Assembly (NCBI RefSeq): GCF_988243305.1
Contig: NZ_OZ547136.1
Reading direction: 5' to 3' (one strand)
DNA length: 64,000 bases
A program made the position numbers and the translations under genes. Positions 17,527 to 49,106 of this stretch are shown here, piece by piece. How positions within the stretch are numbered: position 1 is the stretch's first letter; the number at the start of each line of letters is the position of its first letter. Below the pieces are notes generated by a model. The model did not search any database. It saw only the letters and a program-made list of their open reading frames with translations, and was not told the origin of the DNA.

Positions 17527-19188
17527 TTACACCCCGCTAAATTCTTCCAGTTTCTGGCGGTGGCTGTCGCTTATATCAAAAGCAAAATCCTCATGCTCTG
17601 CCTGGAATGTACCAAACGCCATCAGCGCCGCCACGCTCGGGTCTATCTTGTTCGGTGATTTTTTCTTGTTCGGCTTGATATTGGCGTTCGCGTCACTCTG
17701 CATCACGACGTTACTCATCGACCAGGACAACACCGGATCGCCACGATGCACAATCACCCTGCGGTTAACAAAAACTTCGAACGATTTCGCCGCCGGACTG
17801 AATCTGAGGTAGGTTTGCGGGAACGGCTCCACCTCAAAACCTGCCCCCTGTAATTGCGTTCTGAGATGCGTGGCGTTCCACGTATCAAAGCCCACCAGCC
17901 TGATATTAAATTTCTCCGCGTCCTGCATGATGTCATCTCTGATCCGGTCGTAATCAATGCAGTCGCCAGGCGTTGTGCGTATCCAGCCTGCTTTAGCCCA
18001 CTGACGATAGATGGCGCGGTTTTTATTGGCGGGGTTCTGTAGCTGAAATTCCGGCAGATAGTGACGGGAAACCAGCATAATGGTTTTACCGACCGGAAAG
18101 GCATAGCACACGCTGGAAATATCGCTGGTTGATGATAAGTCCAGCCCCGCGTAACACTCCTGGCCGTGTAAATCTTCCTCCGTGAACGTTCCGGCACACT
18201 CAGCCCATGCGCCGTTACCCATCCACGGGGTAGCCCCCAGGCACCAGATATTAAATCGCTTTGTCATCATCTCCACCCACTGCGACGGAATACCCCGCGC
18301 TTTCTGGATGGTTGAGGCCAGTTTTTCACGATCCACGGAAACATCAATATTAGGGTTCGCCTTTATCCACATCGCCGGATCATCAACCTCGTTTTCGTCG
18401 TCCAGTTCGTAAATCAGTACAAAAATTGAATCGTTGACCTCTTCGCCGTCCAGGATCTGGCAGCAATAATCATAGTGCTGCTTACAGGCTGAAACGACGT
18501 TACTGCCTGATGTGGTAATAGCAAATAACAGCCCTTCGGGACGTGCGCCCATCCCCAGCTCAAGCGCGGAATAAACGCCGTTATCGGGGTGCAAGTGGTA
18601 TTCGTCCACGATGGAAAGGCTGGGGTTTGTTCCCTCGATGGTTGCCGCTTTTGCTGCCAGCGGCTTTAACAGGCTGTTGCTTTTCGGGTGTATCACCTTA
18701 TGCGCCTGAATATTCACCCGCCTGCGTAACGGTCGGGATAAAAGGCACATCTGACGCGCATCATCAAAGACGATCCGCGCCTGGTCACGGCTCACCGCTG
18801 CGGTGTAAATATCCTGCTGACCGTTCTCCATAATCAGAAACCAGTTAGCCAGAATCGCGGCGGTCGTGGATTTCGCATTTTTGCGCGGCACTTCGATAAA
18901 GGCGCTCGTGTATTTGCGCCGTCCGGTGGCCTTAACCTTAAAGCCGAGGATGCACGCAAAGGCGAACTGCTGCCACGGCTCCAGCTCAATGGGTCTGCCA
19001 CGCATCGGCCCTTTTACGTGCGGGCACACCCTGGAAAAGGCAATAAACCGCTCCACAACCTCACGATCGAACGTGTAAAGGGGGCTTTCAAGGTCCGAAA
19101 AGTACCGTTTAACGGCCTGTTTCAGCCGTTTACAGGCCGGAATTTTGCCCGTTTTTACGTCTTCTGCGTACTTATTCCAGGCGGTCAA
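17527..19188 (-). CDS. Phage terminase large subunit
   Basis: 553-aa ORF with ATPase N-terminal region and nuclease C-terminal region typical of Terminase_1-type TerL; follows TerS. Confidence 0.85.
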   Translation of the reverse strand: MTAWNKYAEDVKTGKIPACKRLKQAVKRYFSDLESPLYTFDREVVERFIAFSRVCPHVKGPMRGRPIELEPWQQFAFACILGFKVKATGRRKYTSAFIEVPRKNAKSTTAAILANWFLIMENGQQDIYTAAVSRDQARIVFDDARQMCLLSRPLRRRVNIQAHKVIHPKSNSLLKPLAAKAATIEGTNPSLSIVDEYHLHPDNGVYSALELGMGARPEGLLFAITTSGSNVVSACKQHYDYCCQILDGEEVNDSIFVLIYELDDENEVDDPAMWIKANPNIDVSVDREKLASTIQKARGIPSQWVEMMTKRFNIWCLGATPWMGNGAWAECAGTFTEEDLHGQECYAGLDLSSTSDISSVCYAFPVGKTIMLVSRHYLPEFQLQNPANKNRAIYRQWAKAGWIRTTPGDCIDYDRIRDDIMQDAEKFNIRLVGFDTWNATHLRTQLQGAGFEVEPFPQTYLRFSPAAKSFEVFVNRRVIVHRGDPVLSWSMSNVVMQSDANANIKPNKKKSPNKIDPSVAALMAFGTFQAEHEDFAFDISDSHRQKLEEFSGV

Positions 19189-22710: not shown

Positions 22711-23868
22711 TTAATCGTCGTCCTGTGGCAGTTCCAGAATCTTGATCGCGTTCGAATCCACCACGCCACCGCCTAAATATTTCTGCGTGAAAATTTTGAT
22801 GAAGCCCGGCTCTGTGAGGTTGTCCGGTCTGGTGCGAACACCTGTTTCGTGATCAACAATGTAGTAACCGCGTTTGAAGTCACCCAGGGCAATAACGTTA
22901 TCCGGCATAAACTCCAGATATTCGACCGGAAGGCCCAGTAACGTATCAGGATCACCCGCCTGTAAACGGTCGCGCCAGATGTAATCACCGTTCGCGTTCT
23001 TCACCTTCTGAAGTTTTGCCGCCGTCGTGGAGTTAACCACCCAGACCGCGTTTTTGCGGTATTTTTTACGTAATGCAAATTTCAGGTCGATCAGCGGGTC
23101 CGCAGATGTCCACGCCAGAGATTCGGAAGGTTTAATTACCTGCAACGTACCAAAATCACGCTCTTTGTCGTTCTTCTCTGCACGGGGTACGGATAAAAAA
23201 CCTTTTGCTTTTTTGTCACCGTCGCCCACAACCAGATCGCTTTCTTCGGTTTCCGTGAAGGTGTCGCCAATCTCGCCCGTCAGCCATGAAAGGATGTCCA
23301 CATCGGAAAAATCCACGATTTCCTGTGTGGTGCGCGGGTACGCATAGACCGGATACAGCTTAATGCTCACCTCGTTAATCTGCGGGGTGCTGGTCTGTTC
23401 GCGTGTCTTACCCTCTTCACCGTGGTTAACGGTCGCACCGCCAGCGGAAACAAGCTGCTTAAACTCGTTGCTGCTGATTTTCTTCACGGTACAGATGCGG
23501 CGCATGGTGGACTCATCCGCCAGCATTCGCATGATTTCGGTGTTCAGTTCGGGGATAACGGTATAACCACCATCAGCGGGAACGCCTGTACTTAATGCGC
23601 GGGTTTCACCTGTCAGAATGTAGTTGCGTAGTTCTGCGGGGTCAGTGGTCTGGCTGCTTTTACCTGGCTTGCTGCGCTCTTCGTCTGCAATGGCTTCAAG
23701 GCGGGAAATGTCTTTATCGAGGGATTCAGCTTTAGCGCGTAATTCGTCAAATTTTGCGCCCTCAGCATCGTTAAGACTGCGGTTTTCTTTTTCCGCGTTC
23801 TCCAGCATGTCGCGCATCTGATTTTTAATGGCGGTTTTCTGCTGGCGTAATTCGATTATTCTCGGCAT
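22711..23868 (-). CDS. HK97-fold major capsid protein with N-terminal coiled-coil (scaffold-like delta) domain
   Basis: Start taken at the ATG for MPRIIELRQQKT; the track ORF extends to a TTG at 23913; N-terminal charged coiled-coil followed by a capsid-like body. Confidence 0.8.
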   Translation of the reverse strand: MPRIIELRQQKTAIKNQMRDMLENAEKENRSLNDAEGAKFDELRAKAESLDKDISRLEAIADEERSKPGKSSQTTDPAELRNYILTGETRALSTGVPADGGYTVIPELNTEIMRMLADESTMRRICTVKKISSNEFKQLVSAGGATVNHGEEGKTREQTSTPQINEVSIKLYPVYAYPRTTQEIVDFSDVDILSWLTGEIGDTFTETEESDLVVGDGDKKAKGFLSVPRAEKNDKERDFGTLQVIKPSESLAWTSADPLIDLKFALRKKYRKNAVWVVNSTTAAKLQKVKNANGDYIWRDRLQAGDPDTLLGLPVEYLEFMPDNVIALGDFKRGYYIVDHETGVRTRPDNLTEPGFIKIFTQKYLGGGVVDSNAIKILELPQDDD

Positions 23869-23906
23869 AAAAAAAAGTCCTGGGGTTAAGTAAGGAACTC
23901 CAGGAC
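23869..23906 (-). terminator. Stem-loop plus U8 run immediately abutting the capsid gene start codon
   Basis: Minus strand reads GTCCTGGAGTTCCTTACTTAACCCCAGGAC followed by TTTTTTTT then ATG. Confidence 0.5.
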
Positions 23907-24111
23907 GCGGCAAACACTCAACCGTTTTTCATAAGGAAATCAGCAATCGCACCGATCGTTTTCCCGCCTGGTAATGAATATTGGCGAGCACATTAACAGG
24001 CGGGAAAGTGGCCCCAGCGTCCTGGCACCACGGGCGAGAATAATCATGATTCAGTTCGGGTAAAATATGCCGATCCGCTCAGTGAACAACGTGGAACAAC
24101 CACGAACAAAT

Positions 24112-24149
24112 AATTTACAAAAAATAACAAAAAGCCGGATTGCTCCGGC
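24112..24149 (-). terminator. Rho-independent terminator downstream of the small gene 24170..24394
   Basis: Minus strand GCCGGAGCAATCCGGC hairpin followed by TTTTTGTTATTTTTT. Confidence 0.6.
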
Positions 24150-24169
24150 TGTATGTGCTGTATGGGTGC

Positions 24170-24394
24170 TCAGTCTCTGATCCCTTTCAGAAATTCTATC
24201 AATGCATCTGTCTGTTCAGGATTTACTGCCAGCATTTCACCGGATAGCGCGCAACGAACAAAACCATGATGATCCTTTTCAATCAGTGCGCCCGTCTCCA
24301 GGAATGCGCGGTAATCATTGATGCTCATCGTCTCCATGTTGTCAGCATGGTATTTATCACGCTGTTTTAATATCTCATCAAATTTCATCGGCAT
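24170..24394 (-). CDS. Small hypothetical protein (74 aa) in a terminator-bounded cassette
   Basis: ATG at 24394 preceded by AGAGGAAAAAACA RBS; terminators on both sides. Confidence 0.55.
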   Translation of the reverse strand: MPMKFDEILKQRDKYHADNMETMSINDYRAFLETGALIEKDHHGFVRCALSGEMLAVNPEQTDALIEFLKGIRD

Positions 24395-24488
24395 TGTTTT
24401 TTCCTCTGTTGTGTCTGTTTGTTTCAGATAGTAACTATGCCTGACCGTGACGAAAACCCGGTAATGCGCCATACCGTTTCAACTGGTG

Positions 24489-24512
24489 CAAAAAAAGCCG
24501 GATTTCTCCGGC
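24489..24512 (-). terminator. Rho-independent terminator ending the replication-region operon
   Basis: Minus strand GCCGGAGAAATCCGGC hairpin followed by TTTTTTT. Confidence 0.6.
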
Positions 24513-24563
24513 TGTGTGATTAGCTGTCCTGGTAATTGCGCCATATTTCATCACCAGCACCAT

Positions 24564-24833
24564 CTATCCCCATTTCGGCATAAGTGCGATCGACTGCCTT
24601 TTCAGGTCTCCGTAATTATCCGGTGGCTCCGGTGGCCTCTGTGCCTTCCTGGAACATTCCAGCCGTCGCATCGTGATGTGATGCCGTTCCTTGTCTGTCT
24701 CCACCAGCAGCATGACTTCACCCCATCGCGCCGACGCCCTCCGGTAAAATCCTTTAGCCTCGAGTTCCTCCGCTATGCGGTCATGTACCATCCTCACCCC
24801 CTCAGAACGGAATACCGTCACCGTAAGGGTCAT
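24564..24833 (-). CDS. Hypothetical protein downstream of ssb; start uncertain (24833 or 24791)
   Basis: ORF in track 24564..24911; candidate ATG starts at 24833 (GGGAGG upstream) and 24791 (GTGAGG upstream). Confidence 0.4.
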   Translation of the reverse strand: MTLTVTVFRSEGVRMVHDRIAEELEAKGFYRRASARWGEVMLLVETDKERHHITMRRLECSRKAQRPPEPPDNYGDLKRQSIALMPKWG

Positions 24834-25212: not shown

Positions 25213-25490
25213 AATTCCACCTCTCCGGTTTTAACGTTGATGGTTGTTACCTGTTCCGCTTCGGCAATCTCCCGTTCTGTCAGCGTGGCAAAGTTTGCCG
25301 CCGCCGTGGTCATGAATGCGCTTATCAGGTCGGGATGTTCCTTCGCGTATCCTTCCCGCGTGTGGCGGTCTATCGTTCTGATTGCCACCTTTAAAGCGTG
25401 CTCAGTCATGTCTAACGCTTTATATTTTGGCTCTGTTCTGTCTCTGCGTTTTTGGGTCATTTCTCGCAACCTCTCACTTTTTCGCCTCAC
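25209..25490 (-). CDS. Hypothetical basic protein upstream of ssb
   Basis: 93-aa ORF overlapping ssb start by 4 nt; 5' end overlaps the iteron array so true start may be internal. Confidence 0.4.
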   Translation of the reverse strand: MRRKSERLREMTQKRRDRTEPKYKALDMTEHALKVAIRTIDRHTREGYAKEHPDLISAFMTTAAANFATLTEREIAEAEQVTTINVKTGEVEL

Positions 25491-25662
25491 TTTTTCAAGC
25501 GTCTCACTTCGTCGCAGTTGGGATTTTCGGTTTTTCTATGTGTGTGTTTCATAAGTATTTTTTTACCCCTCACTTTTGAGGATGTATACAGGTCGAAAAG
25601 TGAGGGAGAGCGGGCTAATTTTGGCCCTCTTTCTATCCCCCTCGCTTTTGCTCCTCACTTTT
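25470..25662. repeat. Iteron array (CTCACTTTT, about 7 copies including one inverted); putative replication origin
   Basis: Copies at 25473, 25486, 25502 (imperfect), 25569, 25596 (inverted), 25640 (imperfect), 25654; immediately 3' of the replication ATPase gene. Confidence 0.6.
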
Positions 25663-27061
25663 ATAGCGGCGCTACATCATCCCCATCGATACGAATAACC
25701 CCATCTTTTTCCAGCTTGTACAGCCAGCGCCGGAAGTTTTTCATTTCATACCCCAGTTTTTTCATGTCATCACGTAACAGCGGGATCGTGCACTTGTCGC
25801 CGTTCTGTGTGCGTGAACGGATGCACCCCCATAGCGCGGTATGGTTTTCCGTCTTGTTCCCTGCCTCCTCGATGCGCTCCAGTTCAACAGGAGGGCGCGG
25901 ATCATCCACCACTACCAGCGACGTGATTAATTCACCGTCAGCGTCGGTAAAAAGCTCCACCACGCGTAAGTCATATGCGGCTTCTTTGAGTTCCTCCGCG
26001 TCCTTCATTTTGGTGCATGAGATAACCAGCGCTTCGCTTCCTGCGTCCTCCCTGCGTATCCGGTATTCAGCATCCAGCGAAGCACGAAATGCACTGGAAC
26101 CGCGCGCGCCTTTCGTCTCATCCTTGCCGGAATGGTGAACCACCAGCACCGTGGCCCCTGTGCGTCGTTTCAGTTCGTCACAACCACGGATAAACGCCCC
26201 CATATCACGGGAATCATTTTCATCATTCCCACCAAAGCAACGCGCCAGCGTATCCAGAATAATCATGCGTACAGGTTTACCCGTTTCCCGCTCCACCTGA
26301 CGGGCAGCGATAACCATTTCATCAACATCAAGCGGGGCAGCCGGAAAGATGGGGCGGTTTACCAGATACAGATTTTTCACCTGCTCATCGTGCACAACCT
26401 CCCAGGCTTTTACACGACGCGGAACACCTATACCGCCTTCACCAACCACATAGAGAACCGCACCATGTGCAACCCTGCGGCCTCCCCACTGGCGACCAGT
26501 GGCAACATGGCACGCCCACGATCCGGCAAGGAATGATTTATAGGACCCGCTAGCCCCGTATATGCTGCATAGCGATACCGCCGGAATAATCCCCTTAACC
26601 ACGTAATCCAGTTGCGTGTCGTATCCGGTAGATCCAACGCTCATCGGTAGCGTGGTTTTTCGCTGGTGGTTTTTTTCTTCCACCGGCTCTTTCCCGCGCA
26701 CCCGTTCCAGGTATTCGCGCCAGTTCTCCCGCATATGGCTGTGCATCCCTTCGGGGTAATAATTCGCATCAGTTACACCCGCCGCCGCCAGCTTGTGCGC
26801 AATGGCATTAATATTTGATGGCCTGATGTGGCCTGCCTTGTACAGCCGGACACAATAGCGCCCCTCGTCGATGATTCTCAGGTCTGCCAGTTCATCCAGT
26901 TGATCATCAGCCAGCACAACGGGAGGCACATTATCGCCAGCCAGTCGCCCGTCCTGTTCCTGCCACTGTTTCGCATGTGCCCAGGCATCACTACCCGCAA
27001 AAATAATGACTTCGGTCATCTTGTCGTAAGGCTGTTTTTTTAAGTTCGGTGCGCTTTTCAT
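25661..27061 (-). CDS. Replication initiator with RecA-fold ATPase domain (satellite Pri-Rep-like)
   Basis: 466-aa ORF with Walker A-like YGASGSYKS and downstream ILDTL Walker B-like segment. Confidence 0.65.
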   Translation of the reverse strand: MKSAPNLKKQPYDKMTEVIIFAGSDAWAHAKQWQEQDGRLAGDNVPPVVLADDQLDELADLRIIDEGRYCVRLYKAGHIRPSNINAIAHKLAAAGVTDANYYPEGMHSHMRENWREYLERVRGKEPVEEKNHQRKTTLPMSVGSTGYDTQLDYVVKGIIPAVSLCSIYGASGSYKSFLAGSWACHVATGRQWGGRRVAHGAVLYVVGEGGIGVPRRVKAWEVVHDEQVKNLYLVNRPIFPAAPLDVDEMVIAARQVERETGKPVRMIILDTLARCFGGNDENDSRDMGAFIRGCDELKRRTGATVLVVHHSGKDETKGARGSSAFRASLDAEYRIRREDAGSEALVISCTKMKDAEELKEAAYDLRVVELFTDADGELITSLVVVDDPRPPVELERIEEAGNKTENHTALWGCIRSRTQNGDKCTIPLLRDDMKKLGYEMKNFRRWLYKLEKDGVIRIDGDDVAPL

Positions 27062-30381: not shown

Positions 30382-31611
30382 TTATTTTCTTCTGGCTACT
30401 GGTAGCGTGGTTACGTTTTCATGTGTTCCCGCCAGTATCCCTAACCGCTCCGTCCACATATCCAGCGCATTGCGTTTAGCATCCAGATAACGGGAATGAT
30501 TATAAACTCGCTGCATTCCTGGCATCTGGTGGCCTGTAAGCTGCTCCACGACATGCGGATCAACGCCTAAATCGTTCAGCATGGTTGTAAAGGTGCGCCG
30601 GATGTCATGCAGTGACCAGTGAGGATGATTAAGCCTCCTGTGCGCTAATCTTCCATACTGCGATACGCTGGCCTCCTGTTTCACTTCCCCCAGCAATAAG
30701 CCCGTGTGCCTGTTCTGCTCCACCAGCTGCGTGACGAACGGCAGGATCGCTTCCGGTATGGGCCGGAATATTGCGACCTTCGTTTTGCTGTGCTCCTTCG
30801 GAACGGTCCATAGCATTTCCGTAAAATCCCACTCCCCGATCTCCGATAACCTCAGTTCTACCGTTCTGGCTCCGAAGACAATCAGGAGGCGGATTAACGC
30901 GACGTAGTAAGGGGAGAATATTTTTTTGTCCAGTGCCTGCAATAATTCGCCAAGTTCTTTGTTACTTAAGACACGTTCGCTTATATCCGGTTTTTTCCCA
31001 ACGTCCGCCACGTTCAGATCGTCCAGAACGTTGCTGATTGCATAGCGCCGCCTACGGCAGAACTTAAGCGCCTGTTTGCACGCCTGTAGCACGAATCCGG
31101 CAGTAACAGGCGTTCGCTTTGCCACCTGGTCAAAACAGGCCAGCCAGTGCCGTAGCTCGCATTTATCCAGCGGCATAGCACCAATCTGCTGTATTACGTG
31201 ATTATTAAGTCGCCTTTTCAGGGCGATATAATCCACGCGGTTTTCCTTTACGTAATACTCAAGCCAGTAGGTGAGCGCATCGCCAACCGTTACGGGCTTT
31301 AACGCTTCCTGTACGGTGTAATTCATCTCATGACGTGGATTTTTCCCCTCAGCCAGCCATGTGCGACACTGTGCGGCTTTTTCCCTGGCTGCTTTCAGGC
31401 TCAGATCAGGATAACTTCCCAGCTTAATGCGTTCGGGTCGTGTCTCCCTTCCCGTTCCGGCCCTGTATGTGAAATACCAGGTCAATTTCCCTGATGTTAA
31501 ATATTTCACGCTCAGGTTTCCGCCATCACTATAAAACGTGTTTTTCTCCGCTGGCTTACCATGAAGTTTCCTTAGCAAGGTATCGCTCAGTTTGTTCATT
31601 GCTCTGCTCAC
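30382..31611 (-). CDS. int: Tyrosine site-specific integrase (P4-type)
   Basis: 409-aa ORF; C-terminal catalytic region with HDIRRTF (H-x-x-R) and a downstream tyrosine; located at the island right end. Confidence 0.85.
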   Translation of the reverse strand: MSRAMNKLSDTLLRKLHGKPAEKNTFYSDGGNLSVKYLTSGKLTWYFTYRAGTGRETRPERIKLGSYPDLSLKAAREKAAQCRTWLAEGKNPRHEMNYTVQEALKPVTVGDALTYWLEYYVKENRVDYIALKRRLNNHVIQQIGAMPLDKCELRHWLACFDQVAKRTPVTAGFVLQACKQALKFCRRRRYAISNVLDDLNVADVGKKPDISERVLSNKELGELLQALDKKIFSPYYVALIRLLIVFGARTVELRLSEIGEWDFTEMLWTVPKEHSKTKVAIFRPIPEAILPFVTQLVEQNRHTGLLLGEVKQEASVSQYGRLAHRRLNHPHWSLHDIRRTFTTMLNDLGVDPHVVEQLTGHQMPGMQRVYNHSRYLDAKRNALDMWTERLGILAGTHENVTTLPVARRK

Positions 31612-47597: not shown

Positions 47598-49106
47598 ATG
47601 AATAAATCGCTGGTAGCGGTAGGCGTCATTGTTGCGCTAGGCGTAGTCTGGACAGGCGGCGCATGGTATACAGGCAAGAAGATTGAAACCCATCTCGAAG
47701 ACATGGTCGCGCAGGCGAACGCGCAACTCAAACTGACCGCTCCTGAATCCAACCTGGAAGTGAGTTATCAAAACTATCATCGCGGCGTATTCAGCAGTCA
47801 GCTGCAACTGTTGGTGAAACCCATTGCCGGGAAAGAAAATCCGTGGATTAAAAGCGGTCAGAGCGTCATCTTCAACGAATCGGTTGATCATGGTCCCTTC
47901 CCCCTTGCCCAGCTTAAAAAACTGAACCTGATCCCGTCGATGGCATCAATTCAAACCACGCTGGTTAATAACGAAGTTAGCAAGCCACTGTTTGATATGG
48001 CAAAAGGTGAAACGCCTTTTGAGATTAACTCCCGCATTGGTTACAGCGGAGATTCCAGTTCCGATATTTCGCTCAAGCCACTGAATTACGAGCAAAAGGA
48101 TGAAAAAGTCGCCTTTAGCGGCGGCGAGTTCCAGTTAAATGCAGACAGAGACGGCAAAGCTATCTCCCTTTCCGGGGAGGCGCAAAGTGGTCGGATAGAC
48201 GCGGTTAACGAATATAACCAGAAAGTACAGTTGACCTTTAATAATCTGAAAACCGACGGTTCCAGCACGCTGGCAAGTTTTGGTGAGCGCGTAGGAAATC
48301 AAAAACTATCACTGGAAAAAATGACCATTTCAGTGGAAGGCAAAGAACTGGCACTGCTGGAAGGCATGGAGATCAGCGGTAAATCGGATCTGGTCAATGA
48401 CGGTAAAACGATCAATAGCCAACTGGATTACTCGCTAAACAGCCTGAAGGTACAGAATCAGGATCTGGGCAGCGGCAAGCTGACTTTAAAAGTCGGCCAA
48501 ATTGATGGCGAAGCCTGGCATCAGTTTAGCCAGCAATATAACGCGCAAACTCAGGCGCTGCTGGCACAGCCAGAAATTGCCAACAATCCCGAACTTTATC
48601 AGGAAAAAGTGACGGAAGCCTTCTTTAGCGCCCTGCCGCTGATGTTGAAAGGCGATCCGGTGATTACTATCGCGCCGCTAAGCTGGAAAAACAGTCAGGG
48701 TGAAAGTGCGCTGAATCTGTCGCTGTTCCTGAAAGATCCGGCAACGACTAAAGAAGCGCCGCAAACGCTGGCGCAGGAAGTAGATCGTTCGGTTAAATCT
48801 CTGGATGCGAAACTGACCATTCCGGTGGATATGGCAACTGAGTTTATGACTCAGGTAGCGAAGCTGGAAGGTTATCAGGAAGATCAAGCGAAAAAACTGG
48901 CGAAACAGCAAGTTGAAGGTGCATCAGCAATGGGGCAGATGTTCCGTCTGACCACCTTGCAGGACAATACCATCACCACCAGCCTGCAATATGCTAACGG
49001 TCAGATCACGTTAAACGGGCAGAAAATGCCACTGGAAGATTTTGTTGGGATGTTTGCGATGCCGGCATTAAACGTTCCGGCTGTACCCGCTATTCCGCAG
49101 CAGTAA
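47598..49106 (+). CDS. ydgA: DUF945-family protein with N-terminal membrane anchor
   Basis: 502-aa ORF with N-terminal hydrophobic segment. Confidence 0.85.
   Translation: MNKSLVAVGVIVALGVVWTGGAWYTGKKIETHLEDMVAQANAQLKLTAPESNLEVSYQNYHRGVFSSQLQLLVKPIAGKENPWIKSGQSVIFNESVDHGPFPLAQLKKLNLIPSMASIQTTLVNNEVSKPLFDMAKGETPFEINSRIGYSGDSSSDISLKPLNYEQKDEKVAFSGGEFQLNADRDGKAISLSGEAQSGRIDAVNEYNQKVQLTFNNLKTDGSSTLASFGERVGNQKLSLEKMTISVEGKELALLEGMEISGKSDLVNDGKTINSQLDYSLNSLKVQNQDLGSGKLTLKVGQIDGEAWHQFSQQYNAQTQALLAQPEIANNPELYQEKVTEAFFSALPLMLKGDPVITIAPLSWKNSQGESALNLSLFLKDPATTKEAPQTLAQEVDRSVKSLDAKLTIPVDMATEFMTQVAKLEGYQEDQAKKLAKQQVEGASAMGQMFRLTTLQDNTITTSLQYANGQITLNGQKMPLEDFVGMFAMPALNVPAVPAIPQQ

Follow-up and report, generated by a model that had tools for sequence, protein, structure and literature searches.

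Ppi of the Staphylococcus aureus pathogenicity islands (SaPIs) and RppA, which phage-inducible chromosomal islands (PICIs) carry, are small proteins, encoded after the replication origin, that bind the small terminase of the helper phage, and the structures of RppA and RppC have been solved. Morons, another kind of small accessory gene, carry a factor-independent terminator downstream, differ in base composition from their neighbours and are dispensable for the life cycle of the element that carries them. In lambdoid and HK97-like phages, each is one additional gene whose two neighbours lie side by side in relatives (Juhala et al. 2000; Hendrix). Here we describe a locus with partial likeness to both, found in a 64,000-nucleotide (nt) stretch of contig NZ_OZ547136.1 (assembly GCF_988243305.1), the whole of which is called the window. 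Within positions 24,112 to 24,512 of the window, in a capsid-forming PICI (cf-PICI) related to EcCIEDL933, lies what appears to be an optional 363-bp accessory cassette of Escherichia coli PICIs, made up of leader, 74-codon gene and terminator. Databases already contain the gene, under the labels "hypothetical protein" and phrog_1957. We believe that its terminator-linked presence and absence, its origin-proximal position across genera and the adjacent cargo hotspot have not been described previously, as no description was found in the searchable papers.

EcCIEDL933, the prototype cf-PICI, has the same gene order as the island of the window, whose capsid gene is about 99% identical at the nucleotide level to O157:H7 alleles. 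EcCIEDL933 also carries the cassette, with the PerC-family gene, a 74-amino-acid (aa) protein (WP_001132080.1; 96% identical; positions 47607-47831 of locus L042) and the capsid gene in succession. The two islands differ in that EcCIEDL933 encodes a DUF927 primase and adjoins roxA, whereas the island of the window encodes a RepA helicase and presumably lies at tqsA. In the EcCIEDL933 study, only packaging-module genes were mutated, hypothetical gene 1792 for example, and the 74-aa gene is not mentioned in the accessible text (Alqurainy et al., 10.1101/2022.09.08.507074); the capsid gene is designated 1786 in a 2025 preprint.

Anatomy of the cassette

The features of the cassette and its fixed neighbours, in the order of transcription, are as follows.
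24564..24791, minus strand: PerC-family regulator gene, the fixed left-hand neighbour of the cassette
24492..24518, minus strand: T1, upstream repeat copy and predicted intrinsic terminator (hairpin 24496-24513, GAAA loop, U-run 24490-24495)
24395..24491, minus strand: cassette leader, with GAGGA and a weak second hairpin at 24459-24476
24170..24394, minus strand: 74-aa open reading frame (ORF) of the phrog_1957 family, ATG at 24394
24129..24155, minus strand: T2, downstream repeat copy and predicted intrinsic terminator (hairpin 24133-24150, GCAA loop, U-rich tail)
24084..24120, minus strand: start of the capsid-operon control region, the fixed right-hand neighbour of the cassette (inspection of 15 loci)

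An earlier sequence-only reading had proposed two near-identical Rho-independent terminators around the ORF, and both were recovered as predicted hairpins followed by U-tracts. The stem-loop of T1 (24513-24496) reads AGCCGGA GAAA TCCGGCT and is followed by TTTTTT, and that of T2 (24150-24133) reads AGCCGGA GCAA TCCGGCT, followed by TTTTTGTTATTTTTT. Each has a 7-bp stem with five G-C pairs and a GNRA loop, lies on the minus strand like the genes, and ranked among the best-scoring minus-strand sites in a terminator scan of the 22-27-kb region, with fold energies of -12.6 kcal/mol for T1 and -14.1 kcal/mol for T2 (z = -2.7 and -4.7 against shuffled sequences). The pair forms a 27-nt direct repeat, identical at 25 of 27 positions and spaced by 363 nt; the 22-nt terminator motif occurs at these two sites only in the window, against a chance expectation of 0. 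The stem of T1 begins 6 nt past the stop codon of the intact PerC allele, and T2 begins 19 nt past the stop codon of the 74-aa ORF. From these features we assign both copies as predicted intrinsic terminators, and T1 as the predicted terminator of the PerC-family gene. The coordinates originally given for the terminators were correct, except that the far end of the presumed T-run of T2 (24112-24120) is part of a separate box, TTGTAAATTATTTGTTCG.

The 74-aa minus-strand ORF itself stood as originally described, with a Shine-Dalgarno sequence GAGGA at 24406-24402, 7 nt from the ATG. The protein begins with MPMKFDEILK and ends with IRD. A 100-aa version starting from an ATG at 24472 was discarded, because the start of distant homologues aligns with that of the 74-aa version. 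A RefSeq annotation at 24435-24563, a 42-aa "hypothetical protein" or frameshifted "trigger factor" pseudogene, spans the T1 hairpin without family support and is probably a spurious call. The final ~35 nt of the cassette leader are homologous to the leader of Klebsiella-type islands. The G+C content is low in the gene (43.6%) and leader (45.6%), compared to 56.1% in the PerC gene, 58.9% in the SSB gene, 50.9% in the capsid gene and 51.7% in the whole island.

Presence and absence across E. coli islands

We surveyed 5,426 complete E. coli genomes with the nucleotide sequence of 23500-24400, which covers the 5' end of the capsid gene, the intergenic region and the 74-codon gene. Matches were found in 733 genomes and fell into three patterns, whose sizes were estimated from evenly spaced rows of the hit list: a full-length match (215 genomes); a match that broke off at 24152-24155, a short way upstream of the T2 stem, in genomes that lack the gene (about 145); and a match limited to 24129-24400, in which the gene and T2 were joined to a classical PICI packaging module (about 325 genomes). 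Separate counts agreed with these sizes, as 360 genomes carried the capsid allele of the window and 540 carried the gene. By a reciprocal query from the O157:H7 strain SS17, some 360 classical PICIs of the EcCICFT073 type have the gene and ~230 lack it; EcCICFT073 itself and the islands of Nissle 1917 and NCTC86 belong to the latter. T2 thus formed the homology break point in the islands of both arrangements other than the full-length one.

Inspection of individual loci (L-numbers are our locus handles) located the difference between the two repeat copies. In the gene-less cf-PICI L031, the PerC gene is followed by a single terminator with a GCAA loop and then by exactly the sequence that lies downstream of T2 in the window. 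The gene-less cf-PICI L033 carries a single terminator whose left flank is that of T1 and whose loop is that of T2, as a crossover between T1 and T2 would leave it, and in L001 both copies have a GAAA loop, suggesting gene conversion between them. The hybrid of L033 and the twin loops of L001 therefore point to recombination between the terminator copies. In SS17 (L032), the PerC gene, the 74-codon gene and T2 are followed by the classical packaging module, where a 68-aa ORF is accompanied by genes for a lambda-E-like capsid protein, a decoration protein and TerS. The same module and PerC region recur in EcCICFT073, the classical prototype, but with a single terminator and no cassette. Among the loci fetched, the terminator motif was present in two copies in 14 of 14 gene-bearing islands and in one copy in 3 of 3 gene-less islands. 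Taken together, these alignments identify the 354-363-bp stretch between repeat copies as the unit of gain and loss in two PICI lineages.

The gene was not tied to a particular set of island modules. A ~96%-identical protein is encoded beside the RepA helicase in the window and beside the DUF927 primase in EDL933, and in different E. coli islands the gene lies next to an HK97-type or a lambda-E-type capsid gene. Both the gene-less EcCICFT073 (PMC6739421) and the gene-bearing EcCIEDL933 (10.1101/2022.09.08.507074) have been mobilised experimentally; since both are functional, the gene is accessory.

These comparisons bear on the view, put forward from the letters alone, that the ORF is insulated, moron-type cargo between the replication and capsid modules. 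A separate one-gene unit at this junction of a satellite, insulated by its predicted terminators, was supported. However, because T1 belongs to the PerC-family accessory gene, the replication module does not bound the 74-aa gene directly, and the direct upstream neighbour is the PerC-family gene. The likeness to a moron is considerable, as the neighbours are adjacent in L031, L033 and EcCICFT073, a terminator lies downstream, the composition is atypical and the gene is dispensable. Three of the four moron features that could be tested were found, and for the fourth, a promoter of its own, the scan described below gave no match and inspection by eye only a weak one. In contrast to a moron, the cassette resides in a satellite rather than a phage, has no demonstrated promoter, and belongs to a family that occupies the same position in cf-PICIs of many genera, and so is neither arbitrary cargo nor a one-off insertion; in addition, a copy of its terminator stands on either side, and this duplication delimits what is gained or lost. 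The proposed check, whether related islands hold different genes in this slot, gave a negative answer in E. coli, where the slot contained this gene or nothing.

The protein family, its selection and its predicted structure

The whole protein, residues 1-74, aligned with positions 1-74 of the 82-position profile of phrog_1957 (PHROGs v4; E = 2e-41), a family without annotation. Searched exhaustively with phmmer, 1.84 billion cluster representatives gave 21 hits at E <= 0.001. Profile searching added homologues from Klebsiella, Citrobacter, Enterobacter, Ewingella, Pectobacterium and Arsenophonus, and AFDB50 added those of Salmonella, Serratia, Erwinia, Proteus, Morganella, Hafnia, Xenorhabdus and Yersinia. 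The homologues of other genera are 35-47% identical to the protein of the window. The family alignment has a variable N-terminus and a core at residues 23-70, MS..YR..L..GA....DHHGF.R..LSGE.LA.N.EQ.D.LIE.L. No match to the E. coli or Klebsiella version was found by tblastn in 50,697 phage records, and the family therefore appears to be satellite-borne rather than phage-borne. Six hits were on plasmids, including 16-17-kb circular records. Among the small circular "non-mobilizable plasmids" of PLSDB that carry the family gene are CP018459.1 (L078; 16,971 bp) and the Arsenophonus records NZ_CP038627.1 and NZ_CP123539.1 (~16 kb). The Klebsiella record CP018459.1 is a cf-PICI with integrase, replication gene, family gene, capsid and terminase, presumably an excised episome, and it has a 1,135-aa "tape measure" gene after TerL.

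Whether a protein is maintained at all had to be decided against the alternative that the ORF is incidental, the functional unit being a duplicated terminator or insulator, or a decaying remnant. The empty promoter scan, the dispensability of the cassette and the RefSeq label "hypothetical" fit this alternative. On the other hand, of the 540 E. coli genomes that match the gene, 538 keep the reading frame intact, and the gene of the window differed from four E. coli alleles at 8-10 sites, mostly synonymous (pN/pS 0.11-0.20), which shows purifying selection on the protein. Homologues in many genera also keep the length, the motifs and a confidently predicted fold. We consider an incidental ORF very improbable. 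The best allele identity among complete E. coli genomes was 96.4% for the gene and 99.6% for the capsid gene; the allele differences are concentrated in the gene's 3' half, which makes the window copy a mosaic.

The structure prediction called for by the sequence-only reading yielded a confident model, as AlphaFold2 with the family alignment gave a pLDDT of 89.6 with three short helices, a sheet of three strands and a helix at the C-terminus, but it matched no solved fold and did not name a role. Sequence and fold searches of solved structures found no significant similarity to any chain, Rpp included. A PDB profile match to the nicking endonuclease N.BspD6I (E = 0.008 over 38 residues) was marginal and was set aside as chance. 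No meaningful match was found in Pfam for the protein and 19 family members, and none in NCBIfam for the protein. AFDB50 returned uncharacterised homologues only, apart from two labels carried by one homologue each, DUF3861 and cbb3 oxidase subunit III; both were treated as unreliable, since Pfam reports DUF3861 for no member. The alpha-beta-beta-beta-alpha order of the core in the model and an HH motif that recalls the "GSHH" of HicA raised the possibility of a mini-RNase toxin with the double-stranded RNA-binding domain fold of HicA, and hhalign chose the expected register against E. coli HicA. However, the hhalign probability was 3% against a hand-entered E. coli HicA sequence, Pfam HicA_toxin hit 0 of 19 members, no fold match was found, the protein is acidic (14 D/E versus 9 K/R) whereas HicA toxins are basic, and no HicB-like partner gene is present. 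A HicA-type toxin was rejected on these grounds as scarcely credible. The acidity also makes binding of DNA or other nucleic acids unlikely.

Position across genera and the neighbouring cargo interval

In cf-PICIs of Klebsiella, Enterobacter, Citrobacter, Pectobacterium, Gilliamella and others, the family gene is the first gene after the origin. A scan of viral contigs with the Klebsiella homologue as query and further searches gave more than 45 loci from other genera in which the homologue lies on the same strand, downstream of a RepA- or D5-type replication protein and upstream of a capsid gene 62-69% identical to that of the window. In the Klebsiella-, Enterobacter- and Gilliamella-type loci, the iterons reach within about 20 nt of the ribosome-binding site of the family gene. 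The family gene stood in other surroundings in three records: in the metagenome contigs L004 and L005 it lies beside a divergent Hcp-Tlde1 effector module of a type VI secretion system, and in L008 it adjoins an integrase, in an element whose capsid and terminase genes are ordered differently.

This arrangement raised the alternative of an island-directed auxiliary factor, which would modulate the replication of its own island or tune the switch to capsid-operon expression. Consistent with it, the gene lies immediately 3' of an iteron-rich origin in Klebsiella-, Enterobacter- and Gilliamella-type islands, its position and strand are conserved in the more than 45 loci, and in the simplest islands (L041 and L053) its stop codon abuts a conserved TTGTAAATTATT box. 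Against it, the gene occurs with RepA, D5-type and DUF927 initiators and with different iterons, and is thus not initiator-specific. The region from T2 to the capsid gene is identical in the gene-less L031 and EcCICFT073 is fully mobilisable (PMC6739421), so the gene is not required for late expression. Finally, an acidic protein is an unlikely DNA binder. We regard an island-directed factor as unlikely, although not negligibly so.

The distance between the family gene and the capsid gene ranged from 235 to 2,240 nt across the other-genus loci, and no fewer than eight kinds of unrelated cargo occupied the interval, most of it on the opposite strand (L034, L037, L046, L058, L061, L064, L010, L011 and others). 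The types comprise a 170-aa protein (phrog_5789) with or without a 252-259-aa partner, a 261-aa protein, a 156-158-aa protein, a 257-259-aa membrane-like protein, a 414-aa protein, a 111-117-aa membrane protein, a 136-aa repeat protein and, in Erwinia, proteins of 139 and 230 aa. No significant match to this cargo was found in PADLOC or NCBIfam. The Erwinia psidii cf-PICI (L011) has cargo in the interval and no family gene, and in L068 one cargo copy is broken by a 343-aa ORF, a candidate transposase. In the island of the window the interval is empty. The idea of a slot with varying genes, untrue of the 74-aa gene, thus held for its neighbourhood, and the comparison of loci identifies the interval between the family gene and the capsid gene as the real cargo hotspot of cf-PICIs.

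The proximity of the hotspot is relevant to the alternative of a dedicated helper-interference or anti-phage gene, such as a Ppi- or Rpp-like packaging inhibitor or an abortive-infection effector, a role that had also been suggested for the ORF at the outset. SaPIs and EcCICFT073 carry interference genes at the post-ori position (PMC6739421), and the gene is small, optional, atypical in G+C and located beside the hotspot. However, the likeness of Ppi and RppA to the 74-aa protein is in size and position only (post-ori, before the packaging genes). Rpp identity was ruled out, as RppA is another gene (c1503 of EcCICFT073) in an island without the cassette, and the protein resembles no solved structure, Rpp among them, in sequence or fold. 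No family of PADLOC-DB 2.0 matched the 74-aa protein at E <= 1. EcCIEDL933, which carries the gene, is reported not to block the helpers HK106 and HK446 (10.1101/2022.09.08.507074). Moreover, defence cargo is typically variable, whereas the phrog_1957 family is constant across genera. The suggested anti-phage or interference role is therefore left unsupported, and we judge a dedicated gene of this kind rather improbable.

The capsid-operon control region and its leader

The 265 nt between T2 and the start codon of the capsid gene were found to be structured rather than plain spacer. Directly after T2, the box TTGTAAATTATTTGTTCG (24103-24120) heads the control region and is conserved across genera. 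Three TGTTC repeats follow, 10 nt apart (24104-08, 24094-98 and 24084-88), and these are replaced by the repeat unit TACCC in another group of islands. Next comes a promoter-like element TTTTAC-14-GATTAT at 24065-24040. The whole of 24040-24120, with box, repeats and promoter-like element, looks like an activator-binding array for the packaging operon. Since islands that lack the gene still have the array, the protein that binds it is not the 74-aa one.

The downstream part of the region forms the leader of the capsid gene.
23869-24034, minus strand: capsid-gene leader, about 170 nt, with hairpins P1 (24008-24031), P2 (23960-24007) and P3 (23877-23906)

P3 covers the ribosome-binding site and is followed by U8 and the start codon. 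The three-hairpin layout was recovered in 12 of the 13 other-genus loci of the alignment, the lowest-energy fold of L034 being different; L003 and L077 were without the conserved leader motif. Compensatory changes accompany the conservation of P1 and P3; P2, though its sequence is hypervariable, always forms a long perfect hairpin. In the leader alignment, 94.6% of cells could pair, compared to at most 57% when the partners were slid, and 11 pairs were changed on both sides versus 2.1 in shuffles (0 of 500 reached the observed value), with few independent lineages contributing to this number. GCGTCCTGG (23900-23908) can pair with 24017-24025 in P1 or with 23877-23883 to form P3, and this alternative pairing suggests a switch or attenuator. 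An Rfam search of 17-32 kb found no RNA family in or near the cassette or this leader.

A different kind of sequence lies ahead of the classical PICI packaging operon (EcCICFT073, L044 17370-17450; L032 3330-3400). There, a good sigma-70 promoter, TTGCTC-16-TATAAT, precedes CTGGATGAACATCCAG, which takes the CTG-N10-CAG form of a LexA box; this motif is absent from the cf-PICI of the window. The motif suggests that the classical packaging operon may be under SOS control, like SaPI operon I.

The host island

The region of about 17.2-31.6 kb of the window is an EcCIEDL933-like cf-PICI that matches RefSeq-annotated relatives gene for gene. It contains int, alpA, a replication gene, capsid, protease, portal, connectors, HNH, TerS and TerL within about 15 kb and has no tail or lysis genes. 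A scan of genome contigs with the capsid protein gave 11 loci, of which 3 were cf-PICIs. The order on the minus strand is PerC-family gene, cassette, capsid-operon control region and capsid gene; the remaining features are listed below.
30382-31611, minus strand: integrase
25661-27061, minus strand: RepA-type helicase
about 25480-25665: probable replication origin, directly after the RepA helicase gene
between the origin and SSB, minus strand: ORF of 83-93 aa
24802-25212, minus strand: SSB
22711-23868, minus strand: HK97-type major capsid protein
between the capsid gene and TerL, minus strand: protease, portal, connector and head-closure proteins, HNH and TerS
17527-19188, minus strand: TerL

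The probable origin contains six iterons of the AAAGTGAGG type, one of them inverted, flanking an A+T-rich stretch; Klebsiella-type islands have (A/G)TGCGGC iterons instead. In the RefSeq relative DETEC-S792, the island is located in tqsA, between mdtJI and pntB, and the sizes of the ORFs flanking the island of the window suggest the same site. An A-run in the PerC gene of the window is one base shorter than in RefSeq alleles (AAAAGG versus AAAAAGG), so that the last ~26 codons are frameshifted and the ORF ends at 24564 instead of 24520; this could be a sequencing error or a genuine variant.

Discussion

We propose that the cassette is inserted after T1, the terminator of the PerC gene, and ends in T2, abutting the control region of the capsid and packaging operon. 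T1 would end the early replication transcript after PerC and thereby insulate the gene, T2 would block read-through of the gene's own transcript into the control region, and the 27-nt repeats would supply the homology for loss, gain or transfer of the cassette between islands. Expression of the gene could rest on transcription that leaks past T1, or on a promoter in the 97-nt leader that is weak or needs activation. Its product would be a folded, acidic, satellite-specific small protein, orthologous to the post-origin gene of cf-PICIs in other Enterobacterales, and may act in trans by binding a protein of the helper phage or the host to the advantage of the satellite. The occurrence of the gene with three unrelated initiators and two unrelated packaging modules, together with the islands that work without it, argues that the gene belongs to none of island replication, capsid assembly and late-gene control. 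The missing co-variation with island modules, the acidity and the absence from phages lead us to expect that the protein bound belongs to the helper phage or the host.

The anatomical and evolutionary part of this explanation is solid, and the functional part, a trans-acting binder, is a guess; the whole package we hold only tentatively, at somewhat less than an even chance. Several observations weigh against it. T1 looks strong, with its 7-bp stem and U-run, and a sigma-70 promoter scan of 24395-24495 gave zero matches, the best candidate found by eye being a poor one (TTTTCG-17-TACTAT). The 74-aa protein has no known binding partner or phenotype. The gene-bearing EcCIEDL933 is reported to leave helper titres unreduced (10.1101/2022.09.08.507074), so that a helper target, if any, would not involve gross interference with HK106 or HK446. 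The origin-adjacent conservation in other genera could reflect an island-directed role instead. Finally, the sizes of the three survey patterns are estimates rather than full counts, and in islands with an 82-aa PerC protein the change could have been either an insertion or a deletion.

A bolder extension of the same proposal is that phrog_1957 proteins constitute a new satellite-specific effector class, unlike any solved fold, spread over more than 15 genera of Enterobacterales and Orbales, adjacent to the origin in cf-PICIs and never in phages, which would bind a helper or host protein (for example in anti-defence or helper manipulation) and be exchanged through the duplicated terminator between the two packaging types of E. 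coli PICI. We regard this as possible but doubtful.

In Enterobacteria, PICIs and cf-PICIs rank among the major vehicles by which genes are transferred, and the majority of the small genes they carry await characterisation. What we describe is not a new system: the element is of a known type, and the hypothetical gene in it is well delimited; a by-product is the previously undescribed structured leader ahead of the cf-PICI capsid operon. For the mining of cargo in cf-PICIs, the place to look is between the family gene and the capsid gene. Few non-structural genes are conserved in the cf-PICIs of many genera, and the 74-aa gene is one of them; yet otherwise near-identical E. coli islands naturally differ in having or lacking it, so that nature already offers isogenic comparisons. 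Of the two prototypes, EcCIEDL933 has the gene and EcCICFT073 lacks it, and both are tractable in the laboratory.

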